Source: an uncultured Candidatus Saccharibacteria bacterium
Lineage (GTDB): Bacteria > Patescibacteriota > Minisyncoccia > Phycocordibacterales > UBA918
Direction: 5' to 3'
Length of the DNA: 64,000 bases
NCBI GenBank assembly: GCA_964402035.1
Contig: CAYOAM010000001.1
Span: 371,558-435,557, forward strand
Part shown: positions 2,043 through 56,535 of the stretch, in pieces
Numbering within the stretch: the stretch's first letter is position 1
Layout of the letters: every line of letters starts with the position of its first letter
The notes under the pieces: model-generated
Told to the model about the DNA's origin: nothing
Databases searched by the model: none
Seen by the model: only the letters and a program-made list of their open reading frames with translations
Program-made: the position numbers and the translations under genes

Positions 2043-2474
2043 ATGTCTTTAATACCAAAAGATAACTGGCTTGATCCTAGAGTAGAAATACGAGTGTCTG
2101 GAGTGAGTGGCAAAGGATCATTTGCAAAAGCACCCATTCAAAAAGGTGAGACTGTCGTTATGTGGGGCGGTGGCGTTATTGTCCCAAATGCTGAATTTGA
2201 AAAAGGTTTTGCAGAAGGACTGTATGAACCAGAGACAGCAATCCATTTCGATAAAGATCACAAGTGGGTACAACTCGCATCCGACGATGATAAAGAGGAT
2301 GCATTTCTCAATCACTCATGTGACCCAAACCTGTGGTTTACCAATGGCTGGCCCCTTACGGCACGCCGTGACATCTTGGCGGGTGAAGAACTAACCTTCG
2401 ACTACGCGACGGTGAGACCTATCCACTCAAATCGGAGTGTCAGTGTGGTGCGCCTCAATGTCGAAAACATATAA
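2043..2474 (+). CDS. SET domain protein (putative protein lysine methyltransferase)
   Basis: SET hallmark NHSCDPN followed by ELTFDY near the C-terminus. 143 aa fits the minimal SET fold. Confidence 0.65.
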   Translation: MSLIPKDNWLDPRVEIRVSGVSGKGSFAKAPIQKGETVVMWGGGVIVPNAEFEKGFAEGLYEPETAIHFDKDHKWVQLASDDDKEDAFLNHSCDPNLWFTNGWPLTARRDILAGEELTFDYATVRPIHSNRSVSVVRLNVENI

Positions 2475-2755
2475 CCAGTGAAGAATGGTTAGACAAGCAT
2501 TTTCAAGAAAAGTATAAGGGGCATTTTAATCCCTACATTCAATCACTGATTGATACTGACAGTGCCGTGTAGATCTATGTAAATTCCGTTACATTTGAAT
2601 CCGTGATTTCTATCGAGCGATCCGTTCTATTGAAATGCACAAACTTTGAGTGTTCATTATAGTAATTTCCAAGGTCCGGCCTTGGAAACATAAAAACAAC
2701 TTGGAGGTCCGGTCTCCAAGTGGTTTTTAGTACGTACAGTACGTACTAAGTGCAT

Positions 2756-2785
2756 AAAACCCCAAGCCAGATTGCTTGGGGTTCC
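2756..2785 (-). terminator. rho-independent terminator for the minus-strand gene 2820..3359
   Basis: The hairpin ccccaagc-cagatt-gcttgggg reads on the minus strand as a stem followed by TTTT. Confidence 0.5.
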
Positions 2786-2819
2786 CGTTTAATTGGCATA
2801 TCGGGTGAGCCAAAATTCG

Positions 2820-3359
2820 CTAGTCAACCATCGTTGCCCCCAACCGGAACGCATCGATAAGTGAGCAGTCGCCACACCGAGCAAGCTCATGTGCAGCAAC
2901 GACATCATCGATGCCGAGCCCTTCCGCCATTTTTAAAGCAGCATGGAAGGAATCCTGGCATTCCTTGTAGTGCTCAAGGAGCACTACAAGCACCATTGCC
3001 CTCCGGCTCTGCTCTTTGTACAGAGAAGGAGGTCCAAAGCTCTGCTTGAACACCTTCGGCCAGTAGAACCTCGGTTCTTGCAGAGTGTTGAGGAGCTCAG
3101 CGAACCTTACCAGAACTCGCATCTCCTCGACGTCGCCGGTATAGCTTACAACGTCGACTGCATTCCATCCTGGGGTCCGAGTAGTGATGGTAATCATCCC
3201 ATCACTCTCGATAACGCCGGACAGTCGACCTCCCCACTGGTCTTGTTCGATCAACATCTTGACGGCGGTCGGTAGCGTCATGGACTGCGGAGTGGTGGGA
3301 AAAGCTTTCCCGCCCACCCAGCAAACCTTATTGTAAATAAGCGAGACCGGAATGGTCAT
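2820..3359 (-). CDS. hypothetical protein
   Basis: 179-aa ORF with coding-like composition. No recognisable motif. Confidence 0.45.
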   Translation of the reverse strand: MTIPVSLIYNKVCWVGGKAFPTTPQSMTLPTAVKMLIEQDQWGGRLSGVIESDGMITITTRTPGWNAVDVVSYTGDVEEMRVLVRFAELLNTLQEPRFYWPKVFKQSFGPPSLYKEQSRRAMVLVVLLEHYKECQDSFHAALKMAEGLGIDDVVAAHELARCGDCSLIDAFRLGATMVD

Positions 3360-12735: not shown

Positions 12736-14103
12736 CTATTTTTTTATCGAAGCTTTTTTTAGCGGAATGATCATCGGAGTTTTTCCCGTCTTTGGATTTG
12801 GTGCGATACTTTCGACAAACGAAAGCTGCACATCGACATCAGTTTTCCTGAGACATTTTTCTGCAAGAAGAAGTCCAATAAGTGTCTGTATTTCTTCAGT
12901 GATTCGCTCCCTATCACCCTCTACAACCATCCGCAGTACGACTGTCCGCACCCCTGTCTGTTCAATTTGATACTGTTTTAATCCAGGGAAAAATAGACCC
13001 ACAAGATCCATGGGATGAATTTCAACCACTCGCTTATCTTTAAGTGTAAGAGTAATTCGGTCGAGTTTCCTTCCAGTCACCTGACTGATGCGTGTAAATG
13101 AAAAAGCATCATCCTCGCCCTCAATCGTCAGTTCATCGTCAAGTGTATAGCGAATCAGAGGGAAAATATCATTGCCAAAAATAGTGATGACCACCCGCCC
13201 CAATACACCAGAAGGGACAACGGCCCCGTGGTCATCAATAGCCTCAAGTTTTAAAATATCATCAAATACATCGAGCGTGCCAGAGCTATGGAGACTTGCC
13301 GCCATCGCGAGGCATTCAGTTGCGCCGTAGTAGTCGACAGGACGTCTACCGAAAGCAAGTTTGATCCGCTCTTCGCGATCTGCTGTTAGAGGTTCGCCTG
13401 AGGTGATGATCATCTTGGGCGCAAGATCAAGTAGTTTTTGTATTTGCGCTTCAGCAACGACGACAAGCCCACTCGCATACCCCACAAGCACTGTTGGCTT
13501 AAATGCAGTGAGTTTTTTTACTAACTCCTCTTGTGGCAGCGCAACATCGACACTCAAGGTCTTTAGAAATGGCACATCGTTGACGAGGCTAAAGCCTGCA
13601 TGATGTCCCGATGCTTCACCGATAAAAGCGATACGCACGCGTCCTAAAAGGAAATCACTGATCGGGAGTGGCAGCAAACGTGAAGCAACGGTCCCTGAAA
13701 GCCGTGCCCAAAACTTCAAAGAGAACAAGAAGATACCAACAAACCCAGATGAGCCCGATGTATTGATCGCAATATATTTGTTTTGAAAAAGCTCCTTTCC
13801 GGTTGGATCTTGTCGTATAAAATCTTCAATGGCCCCCTTCTCTATCCCCGGGACCGTGATCACGTCCTCAAAATGTGTCATGAGGTCATGTTTATTGACC
13901 GTCGGAAATTTTGAAAGTGGCGTTCGCAGGAGTGTTGCACGTGTAATCCCAGCCTTCGCCCAAAGCTCGCGATAAAATTTTGAATGCGTATGCGCATGGA
14001 GTAACGTCGCATGCAGCCGTCGCTCTTGCAGTGACAATACTTTCTTGCGTGGAAACGAAAAAATCCGTCGTGCATTAAAATAACTTATGATTCCAAAGAA
14101 CAT
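12736..14103 (-). CDS. adenylate-forming enzyme, phenylacetate-CoA ligase (PaaK/CapK/F390-synthetase) family
   Basis: 455 aa. P-loop-like AINTSGSSGFVG matches the PaaK (S/T)SG(S/T)TG motif. The C-terminal domain architecture fits the family. Confidence 0.6.
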   Translation of the reverse strand: MFFGIISYFNARRIFSFPRKKVLSLQERRLHATLLHAHTHSKFYRELWAKAGITRATLLRTPLSKFPTVNKHDLMTHFEDVITVPGIEKGAIEDFIRQDPTGKELFQNKYIAINTSGSSGFVGIFLFSLKFWARLSGTVASRLLPLPISDFLLGRVRIAFIGEASGHHAGFSLVNDVPFLKTLSVDVALPQEELVKKLTAFKPTVLVGYASGLVVVAEAQIQKLLDLAPKMIITSGEPLTADREERIKLAFGRRPVDYYGATECLAMAASLHSSGTLDVFDDILKLEAIDDHGAVVPSGVLGRVVITIFGNDIFPLIRYTLDDELTIEGEDDAFSFTRISQVTGRKLDRITLTLKDKRVVEIHPMDLVGLFFPGLKQYQIEQTGVRTVVLRMVVEGDRERITEEIQTLIGLLLAEKCLRKTDVDVQLSFVESIAPNPKTGKTPMIIPLKKASIKK

Positions 14104-14978: not shown

Positions 14979-15167
14979 CTCCCCTTCACAGGGGCAGTAC
15001 ACCTTCAGGATTTTTTGTCTCCCTTCGGTCACAAAAAACCTCTGAAGGTCCCAAAACAGTCCCCCGGACTTTTTCTCCCTACGGGAGCAGTACACCTTGC
15101 TGCTACTTTTGTTGCTTCGCACAAAAGATACCTATCAAGGTCCCAAAACAGTCCCCCGGACTTTTTT
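14979..15167 (+). repeat. tandem direct repeat of two ~95-nt units, each ending in a terminator-like hairpin plus T-run, immediately upstream of tRNA-Glu
   Basis: The units share ...c(c/t)cc(t)-hairpin-gcagtacacctt...aaggtcccaaaacagtcccccggacttttt. The 3' hairpin agtcc-ccc-ggact is followed by TTTTT. Confidence 0.6.
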
Positions 15168-15239
15168 GGCCCTATCGTCTAACGGTTAGGACGGAGCCTT
15201 CTCAAGGCTCAAATCAGGGTTCGATTCCCTGTAGGGTCA
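15168..15239 (+). tRNA. tRNA-Glu (anticodon CUC)
   Basis: Cloverleaf fits. Acceptor GGCCCTA/TAGGGTC, D-arm GTCT..GGAC, anticodon stem GAGCC/GGCTC with loop TTCTCAA, T-arm CAGGG-TTCGATT-CCCTG, discriminator A. CCA is not encoded. Confidence 0.8.
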
Positions 15240-15261
15240 TGGTTTAAGTTTACTTCACAAA

Positions 15262-15290: not shown

Positions 15291-15729
15291 TAGTAAACTC
15301 ACCATGACCCTAAGCAGGCAACCTATGTTGCCTGCGTCGGGGAATCGAAGCGGCGCAGTATATCGCAAAGCGATACGAGCCGCCGTCCAGAAGTCTTAGT
15401 ATTTTAAATATTTTAGTATTTAAAATACTAAGAACTTCGGGGACGATCCAGAACCGGCAAGAGTCCTTACGGGACCCGTTTAGGTTGTATGATATTTTTT
15501 TCAAAAATAATCGACAACCTCTTGAGAAGCTACATGTATTCGCTTCTCAACCCTGTAGGGTCACCATTGACAGCTAGCACTAATAGGTTTGTAATGAATG
15601 CATTTAGAGCTAGCTGTAGAAGCATACGAAATCCCCTAAATTGATTAGGGGATTTCGTATGCTTCAAGATAAATCACTTTTGCAAGAGTTTTTCGGTCCG
15701 CGCCATACTGAATCAGTTATACTTGGATA

Positions 15730-16359
15730 ATGTTTGAACGAAACTCTTTAAGTGACAAGATATTATTTTTAAAATTTGGACTTTTAAATCTCATCTTATT
15801 TTTACTAGTCTATGTTCCAACTAATAATTTACCCCATGAAACATACTTTCAACCATATTTTCTCTGGGAACTTCAGACACAACGAATAGACTGGATGATA
15901 ATTCCATACCATAGTTTCAACTTACTCTTTCTCATCCCTTTGTTTCTCCTCAGAGGCAGACATATCAAAATACTTGGAGTATCATTTTTTTTAACCACTG
16001 TAATCGCGGGGCTCTTCTTTATAATATTTCCCACCCAACTTGGTTTTGTGAGAATAGTTCCTGAAGGTTTCTTCACCTTTTTTTACGAGCATCTATACAA
16101 GTTGGATAATACGACAAATCTTGTTCCTTCATTGCATGTTACGTATGTAACACTTTATTTTATATCTTGTGTACCATTCTTGAAGAGAAAGCTTTCTAAA
16201 ATGTTATTCACTCTATTTACTCTGACAATTATAAGTTCAACATTCTTTACACATCAGCATCATATAGTTGATATAGTATCTGGGATCCTCTTAGCTTCTT
16301 CTGTCTACTGGTTTGTCAGCTATAAATTATTTCAGGAAAATTCTCAACATCTGCAATAA
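15730..16359 (+). CDS. PAP2-superfamily membrane phosphatase-like protein
   Basis: 209 aa, multi-TM. PSLH (resembling the PSGH motif) and HQHHIVDIVSG (matching the SRxxxxxHxxxD third motif) suggest an acid phosphatase/PAP2 fold. Confidence 0.45.
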   Translation: MFERNSLSDKILFLKFGLLNLILFLLVYVPTNNLPHETYFQPYFLWELQTQRIDWMIIPYHSFNLLFLIPLFLLRGRHIKILGVSFFLTTVIAGLFFIIFPTQLGFVRIVPEGFFTFFYEHLYKLDNTTNLVPSLHVTYVTLYFISCVPFLKRKLSKMLFTLFTLTIISSTFFTHQHHIVDIVSGILLASSVYWFVSYKLFQENSQHLQ

Positions 16360-17251
16360 CAGCAGGGGCCTTTTCGAAATTTGGTCGCATACCCCACCAG
16401 AGACTCAACCATCGTTTGAAATATGAATATTGTGGGACTGTATGATATTTAGGGTTAGACAACTCTGTCCAAGGAAGAAATGGGAACTTATGGTGTGCAT
16501 GATCCCACTGTCCATTCAAGAGTACTGCACCATGTATCTTACTTACAGAAAGATCTGAAGCTCCTTCAACTACATTTCTTGGTGTCCATGCATGAGTAAC
16601 ATATTGACGCGTTGCCCAATTAATACCAAAGCAAGCGTAAACAATCAAAACACTTTGCCACTGTAAGGAAAGAATATTCCACATTACGATCCATAGGGTG
16701 ATAGTAAAAATAATCTCAAGCCGTACTTTTGTAATAACCTTTCCTTTAAATTCGTTAAATAAGATACTTGAGAATGGCGATTGTCTAAAAGGTTTAGTCT
16801 TAAAGAACCAAGGTGCTATTGCCATCAGTAGATTTCCGAGTGGTACTAATGGGTAATATATGCCGGTGAGTATCCCGTACCATTGAATGTTTTTTGTAAT
16901 CTTATTATCATTGGGATAATAGTAATCGAAGAGTTCATGATCCGTCCTATTTCCCCGATGATGCATTCGATGAGCAATCTCGAACATGGTGAAGGATTTT
17001 GGAAATAAGCTGTGACAAAGTACTCCGAGGATATAATTCATCTTTTTCGATTTATGGAGTACGTGATGTACCGATTCGTGCATAAGTGCATAATTCGTAA
17101 GTAGCACAAACGAAAATAATATTCCTATCGGAATCGACCAAATAAGCTCAAGACGCGAACCTAACCAAAGCAAGCCAAATGCTCCAATTTGAATCAGAAC
17201 AACGAGTAGTAGGTTGAGTCTACTAGGTAATTTAATCGTTGTAATTTTCAT
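16316..17251 (-). CDS. membrane fatty-acid desaturase/hydroxylase superfamily protein (three His boxes)
   Basis: His boxes HESVHH, HRMHH and HAHH with multi-TM spacing typical of di-iron desaturases/hydroxylases. OlsE-type lipid hydroxylases share this fold. Confidence 0.8.
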   Translation of the reverse strand: MKITTIKLPSRLNLLLVVLIQIGAFGLLWLGSRLELIWSIPIGILFSFVLLTNYALMHESVHHVLHKSKKMNYILGVLCHSLFPKSFTMFEIAHRMHHRGNRTDHELFDYYYPNDNKITKNIQWYGILTGIYYPLVPLGNLLMAIAPWFFKTKPFRQSPFSSILFNEFKGKVITKVRLEIIFTITLWIVMWNILSLQWQSVLIVYACFGINWATRQYVTHAWTPRNVVEGASDLSVSKIHGAVLLNGQWDHAHHKFPFLPWTELSNPKYHTVPQYSYFKRWLSLWWGMRPNFEKAPAVIADVENFPEIIYS

Positions 17252-17259
17252 TTGTGACT

Positions 17260-17931
17260 CTACGATTTACTTCTGCGGAAAAATCTAAATGCAATGAAAC
17301 CAAGAATGAGACCAAGTGCCACTCCACCTAAAGCAAAATACTTATTCCATGACTGAGCACTTGTGAGAAGCGGGTTATCGAACAGATTGCTTGTAAATTG
17401 TAAGGAGACAACTTTCCATGAACCATTCTCCTTAACTAGTGTAGTAGACCACTTTGATGTGACTTCCATTTCCATACCGGCTACAAAAGTATAGTGATCA
17501 ACTGCAGTTCCATATGCTATTGCCGTATCGCCGTAAAACTCAGTCAATTTGTCGGCAGTCACTTTTGTCTTTATACTCTTAAGGACGCCACCATTTTCAT
17601 TAAAAATCCTTTCTTGAAATGCTTTGACTTCAGCAACTCCATCAGCAACTTCTGCATTTTGGTAAATAATGTTCACATTTGGATCAAGGTACTTGATCAT
17701 GTCATCAAACCTACCCTCATTAATTGCCTTTTCCGCATCAATCAACATTGTTCTGAGAGCATTATGATCTGCGGTGCGGTCAGAAGTATCAACAGCAGAG
17801 GTGCTCGTTTGAGCAAATGTGGTGAGGCTAAAACTACCTGCTAAAATTAACCCTACCAGAAAAAAGAGTCCTTGTTTCATAAATTTAATTTGTATTATTA
17901 ATATAATGGCACATCTTATATATGATCCCAC
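17260..17931 (-). CDS. secreted/membrane-anchored hypothetical protein (NTF2/SnoaL-like fold suspected)
   Basis: A signal peptide starting at the internal Met (MKQGLFFLVGLILAGSFSLTTFA) and a C-terminal TM anchor. No catalytic motif recognised. Confidence 0.4.
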   Translation of the reverse strand: MGSYIRCAIILIIQIKFMKQGLFFLVGLILAGSFSLTTFAQTSTSAVDTSDRTADHNALRTMLIDAEKAINEGRFDDMIKYLDPNVNIIYQNAEVADGVAEVKAFQERIFNENGGVLKSIKTKVTADKLTEFYGDTAIAYGTAVDHYTFVAGMEMEVTSKWSTTLVKENGSWKVVSLQFTSNLFDNPLLTSAQSWNKYFALGGVALGLILGFIAFRFFRRSKS

Positions 17932-18820
17932 TCATATCACTTGTTCTGAGGAAATGGTCAACTCCCCACACGGGATACACCTCACCAGAGATGTGTATCA
18001 AATCCTTGAGAAGAATTATACCATCATTCGGACCTGATGGAGCAAGTGTTTTATATCTTTTTACAAGAAATGGTTCTACATGTGAAAGTAGTGGGAACCC
18101 AACGATATGAACTACTTTAATATGTGAATCTAGAAGCATTTCTTTTTGCAAAGACTTGTTCCTGCACGCAATTTGATCTGTGACAGCATAATCAATCCTC
18201 AAGACTTTCAGCGTTAAGTACCAAATTATTTTCGTCAAAAAAGTACGAAGTTTTTTATCTGCGTGGGGTGTTCCGTTGATTAGACCACCAATACTGATCC
18301 ATCCTTTAATATTTTTTGCAAGATTTTTACCTCGTAATTCTTCAAGCGCTAAACGAACTTCTGTAGAACCTTTACTTAAAGAGACAAGCCAAACATTGTT
18401 ATGCTGGTTATCACGGAGTTTACTTAAGATGATTTCTTTATTATCTAAAACTGACCCTCGACTAAGCACTTCAACAGTCTCTGTTTCGAATCCAAATTTC
18501 TCTGCAATATTTCTGACCAATAATCCGTCCCCGCCAATATCACCATGTTCTTTATAGAACATGCCCGGTATTATAATTATTTTCGTCGGTTGATTAGGTG
18601 CTGATAGTGACGTGGAGAAATTATTAATAGTGGCAATAAAGTTCTTGTGTTTCATGAGTAAATACTTATACAGCATTGCTGTCGCCTGATCAGTACCATG
18701 CGCAGAAGTCACTTCGTCTACTTTTTCAAGTATCAGGTCACTAGTAAAAACAACTGATGTCTTTTTAAACAGTTCAATTTCATCTATAAGCGGTGAATTA
18801 CGGACAATCCCTCTTTTCAT
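17885..18820 (-). CDS. hypothetical protein, possible alpha/beta-hydrolase-like
   Basis: 311-aa ORF. A weak nucleophile-elbow-like segment LVSLSKGS. No confident family assignment. Confidence 0.35.
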   Translation of the reverse strand: MKRGIVRNSPLIDEIELFKKTSVVFTSDLILEKVDEVTSAHGTDQATAMLYKYLLMKHKNFIATINNFSTSLSAPNQPTKIIIIPGMFYKEHGDIGGDGLLVRNIAEKFGFETETVEVLSRGSVLDNKEIILSKLRDNQHNNVWLVSLSKGSTEVRLALEELRGKNLAKNIKGWISIGGLINGTPHADKKLRTFLTKIIWYLTLKVLRIDYAVTDQIACRNKSLQKEMLLDSHIKVVHIVGFPLLSHVEPFLVKRYKTLAPSGPNDGIILLKDLIHISGEVYPVWGVDHFLRTSDMSGIIYKMCHYINNTN

Positions 18821-18822
18821 AA

Positions 18823-19782
18823 TTATTTATTCATTGGGTATCGAGGCAACTTGTCCCAATAATTCCAAAAATCAACTGCAGAAGCATCTTCTATCGTAAG
18901 AATGCCCTTTTTCGGTTTCATATTCTTTTGTATAGGAAAATCGGGTTTAAGAAAAGAGAAACTCATGAATCTCAAAAATGATAATCTTGGTTTCTCAATT
19001 ATTCGCAGAAATGAGGTTCGGGATTCTTTAGGAAGAGCGACAACAAAATAAAGTGTTGTCGTTTTATTTCCTTCGTTTGGGAGGAGTGCAAGAAAAGCAC
19101 AGTGCCCTGTAATCTTGTTATGAACCATAATAAGATTACCACCGTAATAATCCAATTGAATATTTGACTTAAGTAAACCAAGAAATTTTATTATGTAGTC
19201 ATACCACCTTCTAACAATAAGACCAATTTCAAGGCTAATGCCAATATGAAATATATTCTGACTAAACACAGTATGACTAAACACAGTACGATTATGGACA
19301 TTATAAAAATGCCATGTATCAAAACCATTAAGGCTAACTGCCAGATACGGGTTTTGCAACTGATGCACCAACGGCATTGAATATGCCGGATTTGCTATTT
19401 CAGTAAATTGCGGAATTTCGAAAAGAGGTTTTTCTCCCCAAAATATGAACACGAGACCATACCTTTCCTCCACAAAAAGTCTGCCTGTTACAACTTGTGA
19501 GGGCTTAAGATTTGAGGGTGGCATTTTTGTGCATTCTCCATCTGCATTAAACTGCCATTCATGAAGTGGGCAAGCAATGCAATTGTCCTTAACCGTCCCA
19601 TTTGCAAGGTCGGTTCCCATGTGAGGACAAAACCTGCTCACCATACCGAGTTTTCCATCACCACCTCTAAATAGAAGCCAATCTGTTCCGTTAAACAAGA
19701 TCGGCTTAAGCTGTTTTCTCTTGATTTCACGTGATAAACAGATTGGGTACCATGATTGAGGTAAGGAGAATTGTTCTGCCAT
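18823..19782 (-). CDS. Rieske [2Fe-2S] domain non-heme iron oxygenase-like protein
   Basis: Rieske motifs CPHMG...(17 aa)...CPLHEW at the N-terminus. ~320 aa matches the oxygenase alpha-subunit-like (PaO/KshA-like) architecture. Confidence 0.75.
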   Translation of the reverse strand: MAEQFSLPQSWYPICLSREIKRKQLKPILFNGTDWLLFRGGDGKLGMVSRFCPHMGTDLANGTVKDNCIACPLHEWQFNADGECTKMPPSNLKPSQVVTGRLFVEERYGLVFIFWGEKPLFEIPQFTEIANPAYSMPLVHQLQNPYLAVSLNGFDTWHFYNVHNRTVFSHTVFSQNIFHIGISLEIGLIVRRWYDYIIKFLGLLKSNIQLDYYGGNLIMVHNKITGHCAFLALLPNEGNKTTTLYFVVALPKESRTSFLRIIEKPRLSFLRFMSFSFLKPDFPIQKNMKPKKGILTIEDASAVDFWNYWDKLPRYPMNK

Positions 19783-19903
19783 ATTTTTTAATTATCTAAC
19801 AATTATTCTGTTTTGACAATACAGCACAATACGGTACTATTCGATGCGGATTGCCCTTGTTCATTGAAATAATTCACCAACCTCAACCTCTGGAGATTCT
19901 GAT

Positions 19904-21284
19904 GAAGATCACACTACTTATGCCTCAGAGCGATATGTATCGTAAGGGTGGGATTTTCCCGAAAGCCCTCCGGTATGCACCGCTTACACTCACAACTCTC
20001 GCAGCTTTGGTTCCAGAAGCTCTAAATGCCACTATCAAGTGCCATGACGAAGCTTCTGAAGTCTTTGATCCCGAGAAGTGTGATGCTGACATCGTCGGCA
20101 TCACCGTAATTACACCGACGTCAAAACGTGCGTATGCTTTTGCAAAAAAATTGCGCGCGCGAGGCATCTTTGTGGTTCTCGGTGGTGTCCATGTAACTCT
20201 TGTGCCTGAAGAGGCCCAAAAACATGCCGACGCAATCATCACTGGCTACGCAGAAGAGACATTGCCACAACTTTTGCGAGATTTTGCCAAGAAGCAGACT
20301 CGTAAGAGGTATGACCAAGGACATTCGTATCAGTTTCAAAGCGTGCCAATACCCCGACGAGACCTGCTCAACAGGAAGCCGTACGTAACCATGAACACTG
20401 TGCAAGCAGTGCGTGGGTGCCCATACAAGTGCACCTTCTGTGTAGTTCCGTCAGCTTGGCCTCAATATATGCACCGACCAATCAAAGAAGTCATTGCAGA
20501 AATTGAAGCCCTTGATGGGGACACGTTCTTATTCCTCGATTTGAGTCCTGTGGAAGATCGAAGGTACATCAAAGATCTTTATCGAGCTTTGATACCACTC
20601 AAGAAAAAATGGGGAGGCTTGTCTACGTTCACGATTTGCAAAGATCGTGAGATGCTTGAACTCGCTTCCAAGAGTGGTTGCCGAGGTTTGCTCATTGGTA
20701 TCGAATCAGTGAACCCATCAAACCTACACGAAATGAAGAAAGGGTTTAATAAGCCCGACTCCTACCGTGAGCAGATCAAAATGCTGCACGATCACGGAGT
20801 AGCAGTAAACGGCTGTTTCGTGTTTGGTATGGACGAGGATAACAAAGACGTCTTTGATAGGACGGCTGAGTTTGCAATCGAGACCGCCATTGACTTGCCG
20901 AGGTTTGCCGTGGCTACTCCTTTCCCTGGAACGCCGTTCTTCAAACAACTGCAATCTGAGAAAAGGATACAGAGCTACGACTGGAGCTTGTACAGTGGCC
21001 AACACGTCTTGTTCCAACCAAAGCAAATGACCGCCGAAGAGTTGCATCAAGGTATTCGTAGGACATGGAAAGAGGTTTACAGGCTTGGTTCGGTTTGGAA
21101 GAGAATCTTTTCTTCTGAGGCGAGCAGAGACTGGGACTTACTCAAAGTGTCCATCCCTGCAAACTTGGGTTACGCCGCGTATTCAAAATTTCTCCCACCA
21201 TTCATTTCGATGTCGTGTGGGGAGGAAGATATGTGGCTACCTGAGACAGTGCAACAATCACCAATCGTTCTCAACAGACTCTAG
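19904..21284 (+). CDS. B12-binding domain radical SAM protein (class B radical SAM methyltransferase-like)
   Basis: N-terminal B12-binding-like region, then the CxxxCxxC cluster RGCPYKCTFCVV. The start is set at MKITLLMPQ, which is typical for the family. Confidence 0.8.
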
Positions 21285-21292
21285 GAGGTTTT

Positions 21293-22687
21293 ATGCGTAT
21301 TCTATTTGTCACTCCTCATGTCGGACGAAAGTCTGATATGAGGTATGTGCGAACGTGGCAAATGGAGCCGCTCACCATTGCCACGCTCGCAGCACTAACA
21401 CCGAATGATGTGGAAATTGAGTATGTCGATGAACGCTTAGGCGAACGCATCGACTACTCTGTCCACAGGGACTTGGTCATCATCACGGTAGAAACCTATA
21501 CAGCAAAGAGATCTTACGAAATCTGCGCTGAATGCCGTGAACATGGTCTCCCTACCTTAATCGGCGGGTACCATGTAATGCTCTTGCCCCAAGAAGCACA
21601 GAAGTACGGAGACTCCATAATGGTCGGCTTCGCCGAGCCATTGTGGGAGGAGATGATTTCTGACGCAAAGAAAGGAAGTCTGAAACCTCTCTACGTTCAA
21701 GATAGAACGGTGAAATACCCGTTCGTTATTCCACGCAGAGACATTTTCGGAGGGAGAAACTACTTCAACCTCCACTGCGTGGAAACTGGACGTGGATGTC
21801 CTCTCACGTGCGAGTTTTGCTCGATTACGGCCGTAACAGGTGCAACATACATTGCACGGCCAATAGACAGAGTCGTGGAAGATATTCGATCCCTCAAAGG
21901 AAACAATATATTCCTCGTCGAAGATAACTTCGTTGGCAACAAGCGACACGCCAAGGAATTACTTCGAGCAATGATTCCCCTCAAAATCAATTGGGTTGGC
22001 CAAGGAACACTCAACATGGCCAATGACGAGGAATTACTTGAACTCATGAAAGCAAGTGGGTGTGCAGGGGTGTTGATCGGCTTTGAGTCGCTTAAAAGGG
22101 AGACCTTGATGGCGATGAACAAACCAATCAATACAAGGTTCGACTACGAGAAGTCAATCAAGCAATTGCACCGGTACGGCATCGCACTCTACGGTACGTT
22201 TATCTTCGGGTATGACACCGAGAGTGTGGAAGACATCCGCCTTACTGTCGAAAAAGCAATCGACTTCGGCATCTTCATGGCCGCATTCAATCACTTACTA
22301 CCGTTCCCTGGTACGCCAACGCATGACAGGCTTCAAGCTGAAAAGAGGTTGGTGTATGACAAGTGGTGGCTGTCCCCCGAGTTTCGATTTGGGGAAGTTC
22401 CATTTCACCCGAAAAGTATGTCTCGGGAGAGACTGCATGAAGAATGTTTGCGAGCACGTGAACGTTTCTACAGCATGTCATCAATTCTGCGAAGAGGTGT
22501 TGAAAACATCCAAGGTAACTGCGGTTCTTTGAAGAAAATCGGTGCATACACGTGGATCAACTATTTGCTTCGGCGAGAAGTTGCCGAAAAAGATGGTTTG
22601 CCACTTGGTAATCACCCATTTGTACCAAAACCAAACGAAAGGAGTCCTGGGCATGAAGCGTTTCCTATTCGGATCCGAAGTGCATGA
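21293..22687 (+). CDS. B12-binding domain radical SAM protein (paralog of the preceding gene)
   Basis: MRILFVTPH start and the radical SAM cluster RGCPLTCEFCSI. Same domain order as the upstream paralog. Confidence 0.8.
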   Translation: MRILFVTPHVGRKSDMRYVRTWQMEPLTIATLAALTPNDVEIEYVDERLGERIDYSVHRDLVIITVETYTAKRSYEICAECREHGLPTLIGGYHVMLLPQEAQKYGDSIMVGFAEPLWEEMISDAKKGSLKPLYVQDRTVKYPFVIPRRDIFGGRNYFNLHCVETGRGCPLTCEFCSITAVTGATYIARPIDRVVEDIRSLKGNNIFLVEDNFVGNKRHAKELLRAMIPLKINWVGQGTLNMANDEELLELMKASGCAGVLIGFESLKRETLMAMNKPINTRFDYEKSIKQLHRYGIALYGTFIFGYDTESVEDIRLTVEKAIDFGIFMAAFNHLLPFPGTPTHDRLQAEKRLVYDKWWLSPEFRFGEVPFHPKSMSRERLHEECLRARERFYSMSSILRRGVENIQGNCGSLKKIGAYTWINYLLRREVAEKDGLPLGNHPFVPKPNERSPGHEAFPIRIRSA

Positions 22688-23726
22688 CGAAGCGTGTCGT
22701 GCAATACTTCGAGAAAGTTCGATGGGAAAAGACGTTAGGCTCTCGTTTCGACGGGAGCCTTCTTTTTTTCCAGCAGAAAAAATCACCAACACGTGGTCAC
22801 AACTAGTCGTCTTACTAGACGACGAAAACGACAAAGTGCTTGGCTTCGGTGTAAGGTCAGGAAGACCATACTGGCTCAATGGTCAAGAAGTTGAACTCGG
22901 TTACATCAGTCAACTCAGACTCGTTCCTGAGTTCAGAAATGGACTCTATCTTGCGAAAGGATACAGGAAGTTCAAGGAGTTACACGAACAAGATGGAAAG
23001 GTTCCGTTCTACATTACAACAGTGTTTTCAGACAACGAAATAGCGAGGTCAACACTAGAAAGTAAACGGGTTGGGTTACCGTCCTACAGACCTCTCGACG
23101 AATTATCCTCGTACTTTTTCATTGCACAGAAAGCGCACAGTGAGTCAGCCGAAGCTACACATCAGGCTGATATCGTTGAGGTGCTGACAAAATACAATGA
23201 AGAAGTGCGGGGCGGAAGTCTTGCAACGAGGTACGACGGAAACACGATGTCGTGGATGGCACTGGTTGATCATGAAGCAGTTGCGGTGCACACCAGTAAT
23301 TTCACAGCTTCGGCAGTACTTGTAGATTTCTCAAACGTTAAGCAAGTGGTTATTGATGGGTACTCAATGCCTTACAAAATAATCACAGGACTCGCAAGAG
23401 CCACTGCTCTATTTTTGGGAATTAGACCACCACCAAAGGTCGGTTCACACCTGAGATCTCTCTACCTGACCGCTATGAGTATCACAGGTGACAGAGAAGA
23501 TGGATTTAATACGTTGTTGCAACACGCAAGAGACAGAGCCTTCAAAAGAAACTGTCACGGGGTTGTGTGTGGACTTAGTTCTCGTAGTTCTTTTAATCAG
23601 CACGCAAACCGGATGTGCATCAGCATCACAAAAAGTATTCTGTATGCTGTTGCATGGGACGAGAGCGTGATACCGAAAATAGATGCCGACACTAATCAAA
23701 TCAATGTCGAAGTCGCCACCTTATAG
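22653..23726 (+). CDS. hypothetical protein, GNAT-like acyltransferase suspected
   Basis: The start is set at the Met preceded by AAAGGAG (22637-22643). It overlaps the upstream radical SAM stop by 35 nt. The core LVVLLDDENDKVLGFGV...LGYISQLRLVPEFRNG resembles the GNAT beta-strand/P-loop region. Confidence 0.4.
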   Translation: MKRFLFGSEVHDEACRAILRESSMGKDVRLSFRREPSFFPAEKITNTWSQLVVLLDDENDKVLGFGVRSGRPYWLNGQEVELGYISQLRLVPEFRNGLYLAKGYRKFKELHEQDGKVPFYITTVFSDNEIARSTLESKRVGLPSYRPLDELSSYFFIAQKAHSESAEATHQADIVEVLTKYNEEVRGGSLATRYDGNTMSWMALVDHEAVAVHTSNFTASAVLVDFSNVKQVVIDGYSMPYKIITGLARATALFLGIRPPPKVGSHLRSLYLTAMSITGDREDGFNTLLQHARDRAFKRNCHGVVCGLSSRSSFNQHANRMCISITKSILYAVAWDESVIPKIDADTNQINVEVATL

Positions 23727-23808
23727 CCATTCGTTGCGGAATGGCTATTTTTATAATGCTGTGATAGATTTTCATAAGTTTTTTGTTCATTGTCAAGGAG
23801 CACACACC

Positions 23809-24510
23809 ATGAGTAAAATTATCGGAACGCTTGAGCCTGTATGGTCATGTGGACCAGAAATAAAGCAGGCCTGTTTTGAACTACTGTCACGACATTTTCA
23901 AGGAGTGACGTGGAAGCAGTTCAACTCTGACTTTCATGAAAAACAGTACGTTGCACTTTTGAGGAAAAATGATCGGATTGTCGGTTTTTCAACTATGACA
24001 ATTCTCCCCATATTTCTTTCAGAGGGTCATGCCATGAACGTCGCCTTCTCTGGCGACACGATTGTTGAATTTGAAGACAGGAATACAACTGAACTGGGAA
24101 AGTCACTGGCTTCCTTCTTCCGAGAGGTAATATCTGTTCATGGTGATGGAAACGTATGGTACGTACTTATCTCGAAAGGATGGCGTACATATAAAGCAAT
24201 GGAATTTATGTTCCACCGTTTTGCGCCACATGCCCATCAGAAACTTTCGGGTCTCGAAAAAGAAGTCATTGTTGGATTCGGAAAGGAAAAGTACCTGTCT
24301 CGTTTTGATGAGAAAAGTCTCATCATTAAAGCGCTTGACGGCGATCAAAAACTGCAACCAAATTCACCTGACCTGAAAGTCCCTCCTTCAGAGCTGGGGG
24401 CGTTCTTTATTGAGCGGAACCCCGGCTTTGCAAATGGTGACGAACTTGTTTGTGTGGCTCGGTTGTCCTACAACAATTTTACTGAGAGGTTTAAGCGATG
24501 TTTCAGATAA
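23809..24510 (+). CDS. OlsB/FeeM-like N-acyltransferase (Acetyltransf_5-like), putative N-acyl amino acid/aminolipid synthase
   Basis: The start is set at the Met preceded by AAGGAG (23795-23800). ~234 aa. The segments ALLRKNDRIVGFSTMTILP and AFSGDTIVEFEDR match the pattern of ornithine-lipid OlsB / long-chain N-acyl amino acid synthases. Confidence 0.45.
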   Translation: MSKIIGTLEPVWSCGPEIKQACFELLSRHFQGVTWKQFNSDFHEKQYVALLRKNDRIVGFSTMTILPIFLSEGHAMNVAFSGDTIVEFEDRNTTELGKSLASFFREVISVHGDGNVWYVLISKGWRTYKAMEFMFHRFAPHAHQKLSGLEKEVIVGFGKEKYLSRFDEKSLIIKALDGDQKLQPNSPDLKVPPSELGAFFIERNPGFANGDELVCVARLSYNNFTERFKRCFR

Positions 24511-25940
24511 AGCTACTGCTATGCAATATAGTGCTGTGGCTGTCGTTGCTACCTGAAGCGACACGCTACATCATTGCATTTCTATTTCCGAAACGAGCTC
24601 AGAAAAAAGTACTCATGCAAATCCTTAAGAAGATGAGCATGGACATATCTGAGTTCAGTAATCGCCCTGTCACCAGATATGACGATTACACGGGACAAAT
24701 CGAAGTACTGAAAGAAACAGGAGTTCACCCTACCTACCATGAAGAAGTAACGCGACTGTGTCCAACAAGTGGCACCTCGGGAGGAAGTAAGCTCATACCG
24801 TACACAAAGAGCCTTAAGGGTGCATTCCAAAGTGGATTATACCCTTGGATCTTCTTTATGTACCTGAGATTTCCTTCGCTATTTCTCAAGCGCCAATACT
24901 GGTCAATCACACCAATTATTCAGACCAAAACTGATGATGCTACAAGCAAAGTCAAGATTGGGTTTGAAGACGACGAGGAATACGTTGGTGCTCTGCAGCG
25001 TCACATTACGAAGACGGTATGGGTTGATACGAAAAGGATTACCCACAACTGTCCTGATGTTGAAGCATTTCTTTCCCGACTTGGGGCGAAGTTAAGCAAA
25101 GAGAAGAGGCTGGGTTTAGTTTCAGTCTGGAGCCCGAGTTTAATTTCCTTGCTGGTAAGAAAGTATGGGGGGATACTACCGAAGAATCTTGTTCTCAGCT
25201 CATGGGCACACGGTTATTCAAAGGCGGAATCAGAAAATGTAGTTCAAATTCTCAAGGCAGAGTTACAGCCGAAAGGACTGTTATCTACGGAAGCTTGCGT
25301 CACAATCCCGATCGGCACTGACACCTTTCTACTTTCGTACAATTCACACTATTACGAATTTAGAGACACCAATACGGATAAGCTGGAAACAGCCACAACT
25401 GTAGAGGTTAGTCATGAGTACGAAGTGGTTGTAACCACGCAAAGTGGGTTTGTGCGATACGCCACAGGAGACGTAGTGAGAGTGGTAAAATTTGCGCTTG
25501 GCAGACCCTCTTGCGTGTTCATTGGAAGGATAGGAGTTACAGACCTATTCGGAGAGAAACTTGACGAACGCACTATTGAGAAAGCAGTTGGTGAGCTTTT
25601 GGGCGAACAGAAGACTGAGGAGTCGTTTTGGTTCTTTGCCCCAACAAGAAACCATGACGAATCAATTTCCTACACATTGTTCGCTGGATCAAATGTAGTA
25701 GGTGCTTCGTTACCAGAAAGTCTTGATACTCTGTTACGGACCTCGTATCACTATAACTATTGCAGAGAGCTCGGTCAGCTGGCGCAAGCAAGGATTTTTG
25801 TCATTGAAGATTCTTCGCCAGAAGTACGGTTTATCGAGATATGTTCACGTGAAGGTGGTACTCGACTGGGAGACATCAAGATAGGTCGAATCTCAAAAAG
25901 GTTCGACTGGAATCAACTGTTTTCAGGTCATTTCGTTTAG
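24498..25940 (+). CDS. GH3 auxin-responsive-promoter family protein (acyl-acid amido synthetase-type adenylating enzyme)
   Basis: The GH3 signature TSGTSGGSKLIPYTKS matches SSGTSGG-KLIP. 480 aa. 13-nt overlap with the upstream gene. Confidence 0.7.
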   Translation: MFQIKLLLCNIVLWLSLLPEATRYIIAFLFPKRAQKKVLMQILKKMSMDISEFSNRPVTRYDDYTGQIEVLKETGVHPTYHEEVTRLCPTSGTSGGSKLIPYTKSLKGAFQSGLYPWIFFMYLRFPSLFLKRQYWSITPIIQTKTDDATSKVKIGFEDDEEYVGALQRHITKTVWVDTKRITHNCPDVEAFLSRLGAKLSKEKRLGLVSVWSPSLISLLVRKYGGILPKNLVLSSWAHGYSKAESENVVQILKAELQPKGLLSTEACVTIPIGTDTFLLSYNSHYYEFRDTNTDKLETATTVEVSHEYEVVVTTQSGFVRYATGDVVRVVKFALGRPSCVFIGRIGVTDLFGEKLDERTIEKAVGELLGEQKTEESFWFFAPTRNHDESISYTLFAGSNVVGASLPESLDTLLRTSYHYNYCRELGQLAQARIFVIEDSSPEVRFIEICSREGGTRLGDIKIGRISKRFDWNQLFSGHFV

Positions 25941-25971
25941 GGCTCGGTCATTTGATCGAGCCCTTCTTTTT
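25940..25971 (+). terminator. rho-independent terminator after the GH3 gene, with a second hairpin at 25981-26010 serving convergent dedA
   Basis: gggctcggtca-tttga-tcgagccc followed by TTCTTTTT. The hairpin gatcccaccg...cggtgggtc is followed by a T-run on the minus strand. Confidence 0.55.
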
Positions 25972-26023
25972 GATAAAAAAGATCCCACCGCATTATCTAC
26001 GGTGGGTCTCATAAAGGTCAGTG

Positions 26024-26596
26024 TCATCTTGGTTGGATACTCTTTACGTATTTGTAGAATATGTAGATGGCTCCACCTGCAAGAATAAGTAGCCCAGCAC
26101 TGTACCAACCAAATGTGCCATCACCGTAATTCCTGCCGAAGTAGTAGCCAAAGTACGTCAGTCCTAGTGCCCATAAAAATGATGTGACCGCGATAATCAC
26201 AAAATACAAGGCACGATTCATTTCAGCAATACCTGCTACGACAGGAACAACGACTTTAACCCCTGGAAGAAATTTCCCGAAAAAGATAACTGCGGAGCCA
26301 CGTCTAGCAAAAGCAATCTGTAACTTAGCAATTTTTTCTTCTGAGAATCCTTTCCATTTTCTCACGTATACTATGCCTTTACTCCGGGATGCTTCATACA
26401 GAATCGTATTTCCGATGATATTCCCGATGGTTCCTGACACCGCAATCAACAATATCGACAATTCGATTGTTGGTGCAAAAAATCCTGCGGTGACGTATAC
26501 AAACTGACTTGACGGTAAGCTGATTACGCCGTTTGTGATCATAAAGATCACAATGGCAAGATAGCCAAACGTCACGATGGTTGTTTCGATAGTCAT
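26024..26596 (-). CDS. DedA/TVP38 family membrane protein
   Basis: 190 aa. The conserved DedA segment VTAGFFAPTIELSILLIAVSGTIGNIIGNTILYEASRS. Confidence 0.75.
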   Translation of the reverse strand: MTIETTIVTFGYLAIVIFMITNGVISLPSSQFVYVTAGFFAPTIELSILLIAVSGTIGNIIGNTILYEASRSKGIVYVRKWKGFSEEKIAKLQIAFARRGSAVIFFGKFLPGVKVVVPVVAGIAEMNRALYFVIIAVTSFLWALGLTYFGYYFGRNYGDGTFGWYSAGLLILAGGAIYIFYKYVKSIQPR

Positions 26597-26694
26597 GGCG
26601 ACCTCCCATAGCGTTAAACATCAAAATTCCATTACGACTCTACCATATAAATCCTAGTTCCCTAAGCTCTATAAAAAATACTTCTTGAACTACA

Positions 26695-27423
26695 CTAGTG
26701 TGAAAAGAAAGCCTCAGTATAGATTTGTTCCTCACGGATATTTGCATTTATTAATCCATTCCACATATCTCTCACAAAGTGTATGGAACCACAGATAAAA
26801 TACTCATCGTTACTTGATCCATCCCCTCTGCAATTAACCTCCTCAACAATTAGAGCGGGGGACATCCTGCCTTTTCTGTATGTACCTGAGACAATATCAT
26901 CTTTGGTGATAAAAAAAGTTGCTTGGATGTTAGAATTTTTCTCTACTATTTCTTCCAGTTCGCCTTTAAAGAGGATTGATTCAATAAATGAATTACTGTA
27001 AAAAAGTTCTATTTTTCTTTCTACATTATTTTTTAGAAAATGCCCAAGCATACTCATGATTGGTGTAATACCAATCCCTGCAATAATAAAAATAAGTCTT
27101 GTTTCATTGTTTTCAGTATAAAAATAACCGTAGGGATCAGACGCTTCTATAGTGTCTCCAGCATTTAAATTAGATAGATGCTTAGAAAATTCCCCCATTT
27201 CTTTAACTGTAATAGCGAGAAAGTTGTCTTGAGGCGCACTTGAAATACTGTATGATTTTCCCTCGGTAATAGATGGATCCTGAAGAAAAATATTTATGTA
27301 TTGACCAGGGATGAAAGCAGGGACAGATGATTCTGTTTGTGTGACTAGTTGAATGGTAACCACGTCATCCAGCTCTCTTTTCTTGTCAATCACTTTATAG
27401 GTTCTCTTACTTGTCTGATGCAT
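26695..27423 (-). CDS. FAD/NAD(P)-binding oxidoreductase, ferredoxin-NADP reductase-like
   Basis: FAD-binding RxYS-type motif (KSYSISS) after a beta-barrel segment (GQYINIF), then a Rossmann-like GxGxxP (IIAGIGITPIMSM). Confidence 0.6.
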   Translation of the reverse strand: MHQTSKRTYKVIDKKRELDDVVTIQLVTQTESSVPAFIPGQYINIFLQDPSITEGKSYSISSAPQDNFLAITVKEMGEFSKHLSNLNAGDTIEASDPYGYFYTENNETRLIFIIAGIGITPIMSMLGHFLKNNVERKIELFYSNSFIESILFKGELEEIVEKNSNIQATFFITKDDIVSGTYRKGRMSPALIVEEVNCRGDGSSNDEYFICGSIHFVRDMWNGLINANIREEQIYTEAFFSH

Positions 27424-52368: not shown

Positions 52369-52501
52369 ATCTCTAAAACGTGCTTAGTATAGCAGTTTTT
52401 TAGCTTATATATTGAAGATACTTGCTTTATTCATGTTATATGGTATAATTGACACCTGATATTGTTCCCAGTTCTTCTCACTATCGACAGGGAGTATCCC
52501 A

Positions 52502-52984: not shown

Positions 52985-53047
52985 CAACATTCGCCCACGA
53001 AGAGTCGCTTGCGACCTTCGTGGGCGATTTTTCTATTTATCTTTCCA

Positions 53048-53095
53048 TACCAAGGGTAGCCCTTGGTAGATATTTTTTCCAAGGGTTACCCTTGG
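53048..53095. promoter_or_regulatory. two tandem 17-21-bp perfect palindromes CCAAGGG-N3-CCCTTGG upstream of murA (candidate operator pair)
   Basis: taccaagggTAGcccttggta (53048-53068) and ccaagggTTAcccttgg (53079-53095). Centres are ~30 bp apart. They lie 60-110 bp upstream of the murA start. Confidence 0.4.
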
Positions 53096-56527: not shown

Positions 56528-56535
56528 CGAACACT

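Follow-up and report, generated by a model that had tools for sequence, protein, structure and literature searches.

What is a run of ten genes with the look of aminolipid or N-acyl amino-acid synthesis doing in a small-genome (Paceibacteria-like) bacterium? The question is raised by positions 15730–25940 of the 64 000-nucleotide stretch of DNA analysed here (the window), the remainder of which is given over to housekeeping functions (aminoacyl-tRNA synthetases, penicillin-binding proteins, a Mur ligase, phosphoketolase and acetate kinase). The block begins with five accessory genes, which encode a PAP2_3 membrane protein, a membrane desaturase, a SnoaL-like protein, an α/β-hydrolase-like protein and a Rieske oxygenase, and continues with a five-gene core encoding two class-B (B12-binding) radical S-adenosylmethionine (rSAM) enzymes (rSAM1 and rSAM2), a tandem GNAT protein, a second GNAT protein of 233 residues (GNAT233) and a GH3-family enzyme. 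To our knowledge, the ultra-small Patescibacteria, or candidate phyla radiation (CPR), are generally thought to lack fatty-acid synthesis and to be unable to make their own membrane lipids.

The original prediction, made from the letters of the stretch alone, placed ten genes here and took them for a genuine, uncharacterized cluster that tailors an aminolipid or N-acyl amino acid. We took the window genes from the list of open reading frames (ORFs) and from independent gene calls on the identical public contig (ENA ERZ3430527 NODE_5, 453 kb; locus label L001), and the two are concordant for all ten. Eight of the predicted family assignments hold (PAP2_3, FA_desaturase, SnoaL/DUF4440 with a signal peptide, α/β-hydrolase, Rieske, the two class-B rSAM enzymes and GH3), and those to GH3, class-B rSAM, Rieske, desaturase and PAP2 pass their hidden Markov model (HMM) thresholds. 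The gene cluster is real, mobile and undescribed: the block is strongly conserved across phyla, and a literature search returned no description of a cassette combining GH3, B12-rSAM and GNAT genes. With slightly better than even confidence, we propose that the block is a horizontally mobile cluster for building and decorating an acylated amine; this amine is most probably an N-acyl amino acid or aminolipid that is exported or associated with the membrane.

Linkage of the core genes across phyla

The distribution of the genes was assessed by a single-gene search with GNAT233 over one genome per species (GTDB), which gave 31 loci whose neighbouring genes were identified by tblastn with the window proteins. 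Loci of high GC content were read by tblastn, family clustering and deposited gene calls; the set used for family clustering comprised 44 distinct loci (43 fetched plus the window). The GH3 gene stands immediately downstream of GNAT233 in all 29 loci (29/29) whose contig continues. Among the 44 clustered loci, 43 have GH3, 38 the tandem GNAT and 33 rSAM genes. When five GH3 relatives of 30–37% identity were sampled independently, each had a GNAT233 neighbour (5/5), and four of the five also had rSAM genes and a tandem GNAT. GNAT233 and GH3 are moreover joined in two natural fusion proteins (P0285 and P0312). Clusters of this kind are spread over at least ten phyla, with the genes in varied orders and orientations, and are also carried by a Citrobacter plasmid and Acinetobacter baumannii. 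The genes are thus linked across phyla, the opposite of a scattered distribution, and the linkage is far beyond chance. Taken together, the linkage, fusion and clustering counts identify the triad of GNAT233, GH3 and tandem GNAT as the scaffold-forming core, of which the B12 rSAM genes, present in two to five copies, are frequent tailoring partners.

The full five-gene core is found in Paceibacteria and other Patescibacteria, Ktedonobacteraceae, Chloroflexia, Actinomycetes, Omnitrophota, Bryobacterales, Gastranaerophilales (Melainabacteria), Victivallales and Desulfobacteraceae; Longimicrobium carries GNAT233, GH3, the desaturase, the Rieske oxygenase and the tandem GNAT, with no rSAM genes. 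An exhaustive HMM search returned 2,183 relatives of GNAT233 among 1.84 billion representatives, with 760 clusters (50% identity) at E ≤ 1e-30; both fusion proteins are among these relatives. The GNAT233-like genes of Azospirillum are regarded as more distant family members because no GH3 gene lies within 9 kb of them. At megablast sensitivity, the cassette was found in none of 5,426 complete Escherichia coli genomes (0/5,426).

The accessory genes, from PAP2 to Rieske, belong to the same system as the core. In Verrucomicrobiota, Gemmatimonadota, Burkholderia and an IncF Citrobacter plasmid, the core is again accompanied by tailoring genes (PAP2, desaturase, Rieske, SnoaL and hydrolase), and the whole layout is kept in the nearest relatives of the window, L008 (a 'Candidatus Paceibacteria' metagenome-assembled genome) and L009. 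PAP2, Rieske, desaturase and SnoaL genes stand directly upstream of the core in locus L007, and the cultured Pedosphaera parvula Ellin514 (L041) combines the core with desaturase, Rieske, SnoaL and hydrolase genes. Directly downstream of the Pedosphaera cassette (L041 9530–17506) are genes for a ketosynthase (KS)-like protein, FabG, a Tes-like rSAM enzyme (272 bits on the tetraether-synthase model, below the cut-off of 450), a B12 rSAM enzyme, a FabF-like KS, an acyl carrier protein (ACP) and a FabA/ApeI-like dehydratase; cassette and downstream lipid genes may form a larger lipid supercluster. A separate observation concerns L007, in which a gene for a CarH-like regulator (2276–3139; HTH_17, B12-binding_2 and B12-binding domains) adjoins the PAP2 gene and hints at light- or B12-responsive control.

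A fixed core whose tailoring genes vary among hosts is as expected of a mobile biosynthetic gene cluster. The locus on the IncFIB/FII plasmid of Citrobacter portucalensis spans 51417–63512 of NZ_CP134684.1 and has the gene order GNAT233, GH3, rSAM, rSAM, tandem GNAT (deposited as 'N-acetyltransferase'), rSAM, rSAM, PAP2, SnoaL homologue, rSAM and desaturase, with five rSAM genes in the locus. Burkholderia arboris has GNAT233, desaturase, GH3 and Rieske genes, and the triad of A. baumannii is embedded in an EmrA/EmrB/TolC-like efflux operon, in the order hlyD-emrB-GNAT233-GH3-tolC-tandem GNAT. Some lineages have partners of their own, namely a hexapeptide transferase, an Amidohydro_2 protein, a class-I methyltransferase and a further rSAM enzyme. 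Five Patescibacteria loci (L004, L017, L012, L016 and L008) carry a gene for Lnb_N (PF13387, lipoprotein N-acylation-related) 0–8 kb from the cassette; that of L004 (12521–13381) directly follows GH3 and is itself followed by MarR and, within a few genes of the cassette, a MacAB-like pump. No Lnb_N homologue is present in the window. The genes of the window differ in their identity to the nearest relatives: GNAT233 shares 91% with L008 and 66% with L009, against 56 and 82% for the tandem GNAT and 55 and 70% for GH3. This mosaic, seen over window positions 15730–27423, suggests recombination between cluster variants within Patescibacteria. As to deposited records, the A. baumannii locus L049 (6114–13784), in which GNAT233, GH3 and the tandem GNAT are interleaved with hlyD/emrB/tolC-like genes, is labelled 'Acinetobacter phage MD-2021a'; the 'phage' and 'plasmid' labels of the L049 and L047 records look mis-assigned, and these are likely to be chromosomal contigs.

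The acyltransferases and the GH3 enzyme

Sequence-profile searches of the PDB with the two unknown proteins were uninformative, so structure prediction was needed. GNAT233 (23809–24510, forward strand) was modelled by AlphaFold2 with a predicted local distance difference test (pLDDT) score of 95 and consists of a GNAT domain of about 135 residues followed by a novel C-terminal half of about 100 residues. Its true start is at 23809 and not 23683, because all homologues begin there, with Met or Val. In Foldseek, AAC(2')-Ia and Eis matched the N-terminal half alone (~1e-5), and AAC(2')-Ia, Eis and Naa60 had a probability of 1.0 across ~135 residues; the C-terminal half has no match. The protein had been described as OlsB/FeeM-like, an assignment that we abandon: none of 34 family members (0/34) matches Acetyltransf_5 (PF13444), FeeM is absent from the top 50 Foldseek matches, and 18 of the 34 weakly match Acetyltransf_9 (PF13527). 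OlsB/OlsF/GlsB and FeeM are GNAT-fold N-acylators of amino acids in aminolipid pathways, the role that had been given to GNAT233. The latter differs from them in lacking the Acetyltransf_5 match, in having AAC(2') and Eis as its best structural matches and in possessing a C-terminal half of its own; it has no Pfam family of its own.

The 357-residue protein encoded at 22653–23726 (forward strand), earlier called GNAT-like, is better described as a tandem GNAT whose closest fold is that of N-myristoyltransferase (NMT). The likeness to eukaryotic NMT may extend to the end of the chain, the position of which is strictly conserved and which closes on a hydrophobic residue (E-h-x-x-[L/V/I]-stop, invariant in the family). 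NMT itself uses its C-terminal carboxylate as the catalytic base. Unlike eukaryotic NMT, the window protein is bacterial, is encoded in a metabolic operon, shares only 8–12% identity and has no Pfam NMT match.

The assignment of the last gene (24498–25940, forward strand) to the GH3 family of adenylate-forming acyl-acid amido synthetases (PF03321/PF23571) is confirmed by scores of 56.6 bits for GH3_M and 33.1 bits for GH3 (cut-off 23.6) and by the adenylation motifs TSGTS90 and YATGD321. Its sequence matches in the PDB are the plant GH3 enzymes JAR1 and GH3.5/6/12. We also observed that GH3 of the Paceibacteria clade is compact (480 residues versus 500–570 elsewhere), that alignments to other homologues split at a missing segment of ~70 residues and that the clade has no detectable GH3_C match. 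A general N-terminal membrane anchor of GH3, considered as an argument for a lipid substrate, was dropped as it is present in 28 of 119 homologues only, all in the close clade. Equivalog assignments to OlsB/FeeM, OlsE and OlsH were likewise rejected on HMM scores and Foldseek matches.

The radical SAM pair

rSAM1 (19902–21284, forward strand) matches Pfam B12-binding at 41.8 bits (PF02310, cut-off 32.1) and Radical_SAM at 59 bits, and carries the motif CPYKCTFC. rSAM2 (21293–22687, forward strand) matches Radical_SAM at 65 bits and carries CPLTCEFC; it has no PF02310 match itself, its residues 27–202 align to the B12-rSAM model TIGR04013, its N-terminus also aligns to the B12-rSAM model TIGR04072, and its orthologues carry PF02310. 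Both enzymes therefore show the class-B combination of CxxxCxxC with an N-terminal cobalamin-binding domain, and the prediction of two tandem B12-binding radical SAM enzymes is upheld. The two are paralogues (36% identity), with orthologues of 40–97% identity in 33 loci for rSAM1 and of 40–94% identity for rSAM2. Their nearest solved structures are 9CCB (QCMT), AprD4 and TsrM, and rSAM1 is a probable C-methyltransferase.

The pair shares with the class-B enzymes QCMT, TsrM, HpnP/HpnR, HpnJ, BchE and TIGR04072 ('lipid biosynthesis B12/rSAM') an N-terminal Rossmann/B12 domain followed by the CxxxCxxC core, and several of these named systems act on lipids or unactivated carbons. The window enzymes nevertheless score far below the cut-offs of the named equivalogs: their best scores are 117 bits for BchE (cut-off 481), 94 for HpnJ (578; 83–94 for the pair), 91 for PhpK (600) and 67 for TIGR04072 (360; 62–67 for the pair), and the cut-offs of HpnR and QCMT/TIGR04014 are likewise not reached. 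rSAM1 and rSAM2 instead each form a separate orthologous group, and both groups accompany GH3.

The tailoring genes

The first gene of the block (15730–16359, forward strand) encodes a PAP2_3 membrane protein of the sphingomyelin/inositol phosphorylceramide (IPC) synthase-like phosphatase/phosphotransferase type (Pfam 33.4 bits, cut-off 27), with four to five hydrophobic segments and the motifs PSLH133 and HHIVD177. In L007, L008 and the Citrobacter plasmid, too, a PAP2 gene adjoins the cassette. It resembles the PAP2_3-type sphingomyelin and IPC synthases in being a PAP2_3 membrane protein with a His/His/Asp motif region. Like the phosphoinositol-dihydroceramide synthase of Bacteroides (NF052609), it stands beside enzymes of an amide-lipid type, with a match to that model far under the cut-off (22.7 bits versus 480). 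We predict a phosphatase or transferase function of this type.

The desaturase (16316–17251, reverse strand) is a membrane di-iron enzyme of the FA_desaturase family (PF00487; 56.4 bits, cut-off 29.7, E = 4.9e-15) with the three His boxes HESVHH58, HRMHH94 and HAHH251, as predicted. The more specific label of 'OlsE-type' was mistaken, the match being to PF00487, with none to the PF04116 FA_hydroxylase family or to OlsE. Homologues flank the cassette in L007, L008, L009, L046 and L048, and FA_desaturase genes do so in L029 and L041. The next protein (17260–17880, reverse strand) matches Pfam DUF4440 and SnoaL_3; hydropathy indicates an N-terminal signal peptide and a C-terminal transmembrane anchor, and the protein is predicted to face outward. 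SnoaL-like homologues accompany the cassette in L007, L008, L009, L041 and L048.

The 311-residue protein at 17885–18820 (reverse strand) has no Pfam match. Its alignment comprises the window protein, its L008 and L009 homologues and a 361-residue protein of the P. parvula cluster (28% identity). The resulting four-sequence profile matches the α/β-hydrolase esterase MGS0156 in the PDB (E = 5.7e-6), and Ser149 (in SLSKG), Asp266 and His289 are invariant, which makes the protein a candidate esterase or O-acyltransferase. The Rieske [2Fe-2S] non-heme-iron oxygenase (18823–19782, reverse strand) is of the α-subunit type (Pfam Rieske 75.4 bits, 3.4e-21) and contains CxH..CxxH (CPH...CPLH, residue 52) and DxxHx4H (DTWHFYNVH, residue 155). 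Its top NCBIfam match, SdmA-like, is far under the cut-off of that model. Rieske homologues lie near the GNAT233–GH3 pair in ten loci.

Operon structure and block edges

The stop/start overlaps at 22653/22687 and 24498/24510 are real, and Shine–Dalgarno (SD) motifs precede the rSAM1, rSAM2, 357-residue and 233-residue genes, in agreement with the ribosome-binding sites claimed for them. The accompanying view that the last five genes form one operon is too simple for the window lineage, because a positionally conserved hairpin splits the Patescibacteria loci and the two halves are divergent elsewhere. In the window, this terminator-like hairpin with a T-run (23723–23748, forward strand; 10-bp stem, −14.7 kcal/mol, z = −3.4) occupies the 82-bp spacer after the tandem-GNAT stop, and hairpins with differing stem sequences are found at the same position in L004, L006, L012, L008 and L009; it may act as a partial terminator. 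rSAM1-rSAM2-tandem GNAT and GNAT233-GH3 are divergent in the Chloroflexota and Actinomycetes loci, and abut or overlap in Omnitrophota and Pedosphaera. The core is made up of these two modules. A further strong terminator-like hairpin was noticed at 22737–22760, inside the tandem-GNAT coding sequence and 50 bp past the rSAM2 stop (10-bp stem with 6 GC pairs, then TCTTTTTTTC); an attenuator is one possibility, a side effect of the conserved EPSFF codons another.

The core half (19902–25940) has clear GGAG, AGGAGG and AAGGAG sites, and the five accessory genes (15730–19782) have no SD motifs. The GC fraction of the 16–20 kb stretch, which covers most of the accessory half (PAP2 to Rieske), is 0.375, against 0.45–0.48 for the core stretch. 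Accessory and core halves may differ in origin or in mode of expression.

The upstream edge of the block is marked by tRNA-Glu(CTC) (15167–15240, forward strand; ARAGORN, Rfam tRNA 62 bits), which lies 490 bp upstream and is a boundary marker and not a pathway enzyme. Its last 13 nucleotides (CCCTGTAGGGTCA) recur 312 bp downstream at 15551–15563 (two matches in a repeat search, none expected), and this repeat may be the remnant of an integration site; no att-like direct repeat bracketing the whole cluster was found. An inverted partial copy of the tRNA end is visible by eye at ~15303–15313. Just before the tRNA (15023–15166) are two tandem units of ~92 nucleotides, the aligned 52-nucleotide cores of which are 87% identical, and each ends in the hairpin AGTCCCCCGGACT and a T-run. 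Further out, 1.6 kb upstream of the block and beyond DUF2238 and the tRNA, lies the gene for an F390-synthetase/PaaK-like adenylate-forming enzyme (12736–14103, reverse strand; TIGR02304, 92 bits, below cut-off), a candidate that could serve as an acyl-activating enzyme for the GNAT proteins.

At the downstream edge, the terminator scan found a terminator-like hairpin that closes the GNAT233-GH3 unit (25939–25964, forward strand), facing another that closes the convergent DedA gene (26006–25984, reverse strand). That gene (26024–26596, reverse strand) encodes a DedA/VTT membrane protein (Pfam VTT_dom, weak UptA-like match) and is a tentative member of the cluster: it is absent from the equivalent position in L008 and L009, and a VTT gene lies near the cassette in L004 and L005. 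Equally tentative is an FNR-like FAD/NAD(P)H reductase (26695–27423, reverse strand; Pfam FAD_binding_6 and NAD_binding_1) resembling the BenC, PaaE and MmoC reductase modules. It adjoins GH3 in L008 and L009, but a check of four other Rieske-containing loci (L007, L029, L041 and L046) did not reveal it. It is tentatively viewed as the electron donor for the Rieske oxygenase and the desaturase; because it overlaps the downstream IscU gene, it may instead belong to the Fe–S assembly operon, of which IscU and IscS lie just downstream of the block.

Proposed pathway and alternative explanations

From the protein families, folds and catalytic motifs, the cross-phylum linkage and the GNAT233–GH3 fusion, we infer the following substrates, step order and lipid product. 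In an ATP-dependent step, GH3 would activate a free carboxylic acid by adenylation (most likely a fatty acid, the substrate of OlsH) and couple it to an amino group without ACP or CoA. GNAT233 and the NMT-like tandem GNAT would then add one or two further acyl groups from acyl-CoA to the remaining amine or hydroxyl, the conserved C-terminal carboxylate of the tandem GNAT acting as the base. The two B12 rSAM paralogues would methylate unactivated carbons. In the window lineage, an O2-dependent module would finally hydroxylate, desaturate, trans-acylate and possibly phospho-headgroup the product at the membrane, drawing on the Rieske oxygenase, the membrane desaturase, perhaps the FNR-like reductase, the α/β-hydrolase, the outward-facing SnoaL-like protein and the PAP2_3 phosphotransferase.

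Several features point to a lipid or other amphiphile as the product: the membrane location of the desaturase, PAP2_3 and anchored SnoaL proteins, the NMT-like fold, the DedA neighbours, the embedding in an efflux-pump operon in A. baumannii, the MacAB-like pump of L004 and the neighbours of fatty-acid-synthase type in Pedosphaera. The methylation step is supported by the proximity of the rSAM enzymes to the B12-dependent C-methyltransferases QCMT (9CCB) and TsrM. The lipo-amino-acid product of the original prediction becomes more plausible because a bacterial GH3 enzyme, OlsH, makes N-acyl-ornithine from free fatty acid and ATP (PMC12493201); its lipid nature remains inferred.

Other points weigh against this pathway. 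Not one member of the cassette has a known product, fold matches at 8–16% identity leave the substrates unfixed, and the neighbours resembling fatty-acid synthesis are seen in Pedosphaera only. Plant GH3 enzymes use small acids, and the window GH3 scores 19.2 bits on the OlsH equivalog (NF052613; residues 299–383 only, cut-off 620), so the carboxylate may be a non-fatty one; the hydrophobic N-terminal helix of GH3, as noted above, is confined to the close clade. GNAT enzymes depend on acyl- or acetyl-CoA, which a reduced genome may not supply, and class-B rSAM enzymes also perform chemistry other than methylation (HpnJ, BchE, OxsB and AprD4).

One alternative is a small, non-membrane natural product, such as a C-methylated and N-acylated amino acid or short peptide serving as an exported signal, antibiotic or metallophore, for which GH3 would ligate a small acid to an amine and the GNAT proteins would acetylate or acylate it. 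The plant enzymes matched in the PDB do conjugate small acids, GNAT233 resembles the small-molecule N-acetyltransferases AAC(2') and Eis, the A. baumannii triad sits within an operon of the EmrAB–TolC type, B12 rSAM methylases are common in antibiotic pathways, and the variation of tailoring genes from locus to locus (hexapeptide transferase, Amidohydro_2, class-I methyltransferase and extra rSAM) is typical of secondary-metabolite clusters. We nevertheless consider this somewhat unlikely, given that the desaturase-family, PAP2_3 and anchored SnoaL partners are embedded in the membrane, the best fold match is to a long-chain acyl-CoA enzyme, the Pedosphaera copy adjoins lipid-synthesis genes and the sole characterized bacterial GH3 uses fatty acids (PMC12493201). 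Modification of a macromolecule, such as a lipoprotein N-terminus or an envelope polymer, by NMT-like N-acylation and rSAM methylation of the same target appears quite improbable. Such a role would fit the closeness of the tandem GNAT to protein N-myristoyltransferases with its fixed C-terminus, the protein-residue methylation performed by QCMT, the nearest solved rSAM enzyme, and the Lnb_N genes close to the cassette in five Patescibacteria loci. However, a conserved gene for a substrate protein or precursor peptide was found neither within the cassette nor next to it, no GH3 enzyme is known to act on a protein, and Lnb_N is missing from the window, and its linkage may reflect mere synteny among Patescibacteria.

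It is extremely improbable, and effectively refuted by synteny, that unrelated housekeeping genes, such as acetyltransferase genes and rSAM genes for cofactor or tRNA modification, came to lie together here by chance. IscU and IscS do lie just downstream, and the similarity of the rSAM genes to any named family is at the superfamily level only; yet the same set is linked in at least ten phyla in varied order and orientation, with a plasmid copy and a domain fusion, and no cofactor or tRNA-modification context accounts for the rSAM pair, no such equivalog threshold being approached. An N-acyl amino acid or aminolipid is the product that we favour.

Other candidates were discarded separately. 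Six-frame inspection of the spacers of 13 loci revealed no conserved small ORF, and gene calls in nine loci no shared small gene, that would indicate a cluster for a peptide that is made on the ribosome and modified after translation (RiPP). PADLOC gave only weak superfamily matches to anti-phage defence systems, the two rSAM enzymes matching the candidate PDC-M51A (28.5 and 19.6 bits) and the other proteins nothing. Searches of the stretch from 12 to 31 kb for regulatory RNAs or riboswitches in the spacers (Rfam, E ≤ 1) returned tRNA-Glu only.

A bolder form of the lipid proposal, which we hold to be doubtful and put forward tentatively, is that the product of the cassette belongs to a hitherto unknown class of bacterial amide lipids. 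It would be an amino-acid lipid with several acyl chains, C-methyl and hydroxyl groups and possibly a phospho-headgroup, built from free, scavenged fatty acids by the GH3/GNAT/NMT-like triad. If this were true, the cassette would give ultra-small Patescibacteria an autonomous route to a signature envelope lipid, and A. baumannii and plasmid-bearing Enterobacteriaceae would obtain an exported lipoamino acid from this same mobile unit. More generally, GNAT233, with its 760 clusters, is paired with one clade of bacterial GH3, a family with a single characterized member, reported in 2025. Once defined, the product would reveal what two new acyltransferase families and two orphan B12 rSAM orthologous groups do, would put to the test the idea that CPR bacteria turn scavenged fatty acids into their own lipids and would explain a plasmid-borne, efflux-linked locus in clinically relevant Enterobacteriaceae and A. 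baumannii. The cassette is experimentally tractable because it has cultured hosts, namely P. parvula Ellin514, C. portucalensis 64A:C, A. baumannii and B. arboris.

Comparison with known systems

OlsH is the only bacterial GH3 for which our literature search found a functional study. The enzyme of Singulisphaera acidiphila (L0DAW6), described in 2025, forms N-acyl-ornithine with free fatty acid, ATP and Mg2+ and needs neither ACP nor CoA, and its operon partners are the methyltransferase OlsG and the α/β-hydrolase-fold O-acyltransferase OlsI (PMC12493201). A 2026 review gives no rSAM-linked variant. The original statement that the cluster has no obvious described counterpart is therefore half right: the cassette itself is undescribed, but its logic of GH3, α/β-hydrolase and methylase parallels olsH-olsG-olsI. 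Both systems have a GH3-family ATP-dependent amido synthetase at the heart of the operon, an α/β-hydrolase-fold partner and a SAM-dependent methylation step (in the window a predicted one), and a pathway that takes free fatty acid without ACP or CoA would suit a lipid-scavenging genome.

Other features differ. The window GH3 is only a distant relative of OlsH (19 bits against a cut-off of 620), and the window hydrolase, which shares the α/β-hydrolase fold with OlsI, has no NCBIfam match at E ≤ 0.01. An N-methyltransferase of the OlsG type is replaced by two B12 radical SAM enzymes, and the window has two extra acyltransferases, both representing new GNAT families, one of which is obligately paired or fused with GH3. 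No ornithine-lipid locus is known to have Rieske, desaturase and PAP2 tailoring genes. On this comparison, the window cluster would be of a known kind, GH3-dependent synthesis of an N-acyl amino acid or aminolipid, to which two acyltransferase families and the orphan B12 rSAM groups would be the new additions.

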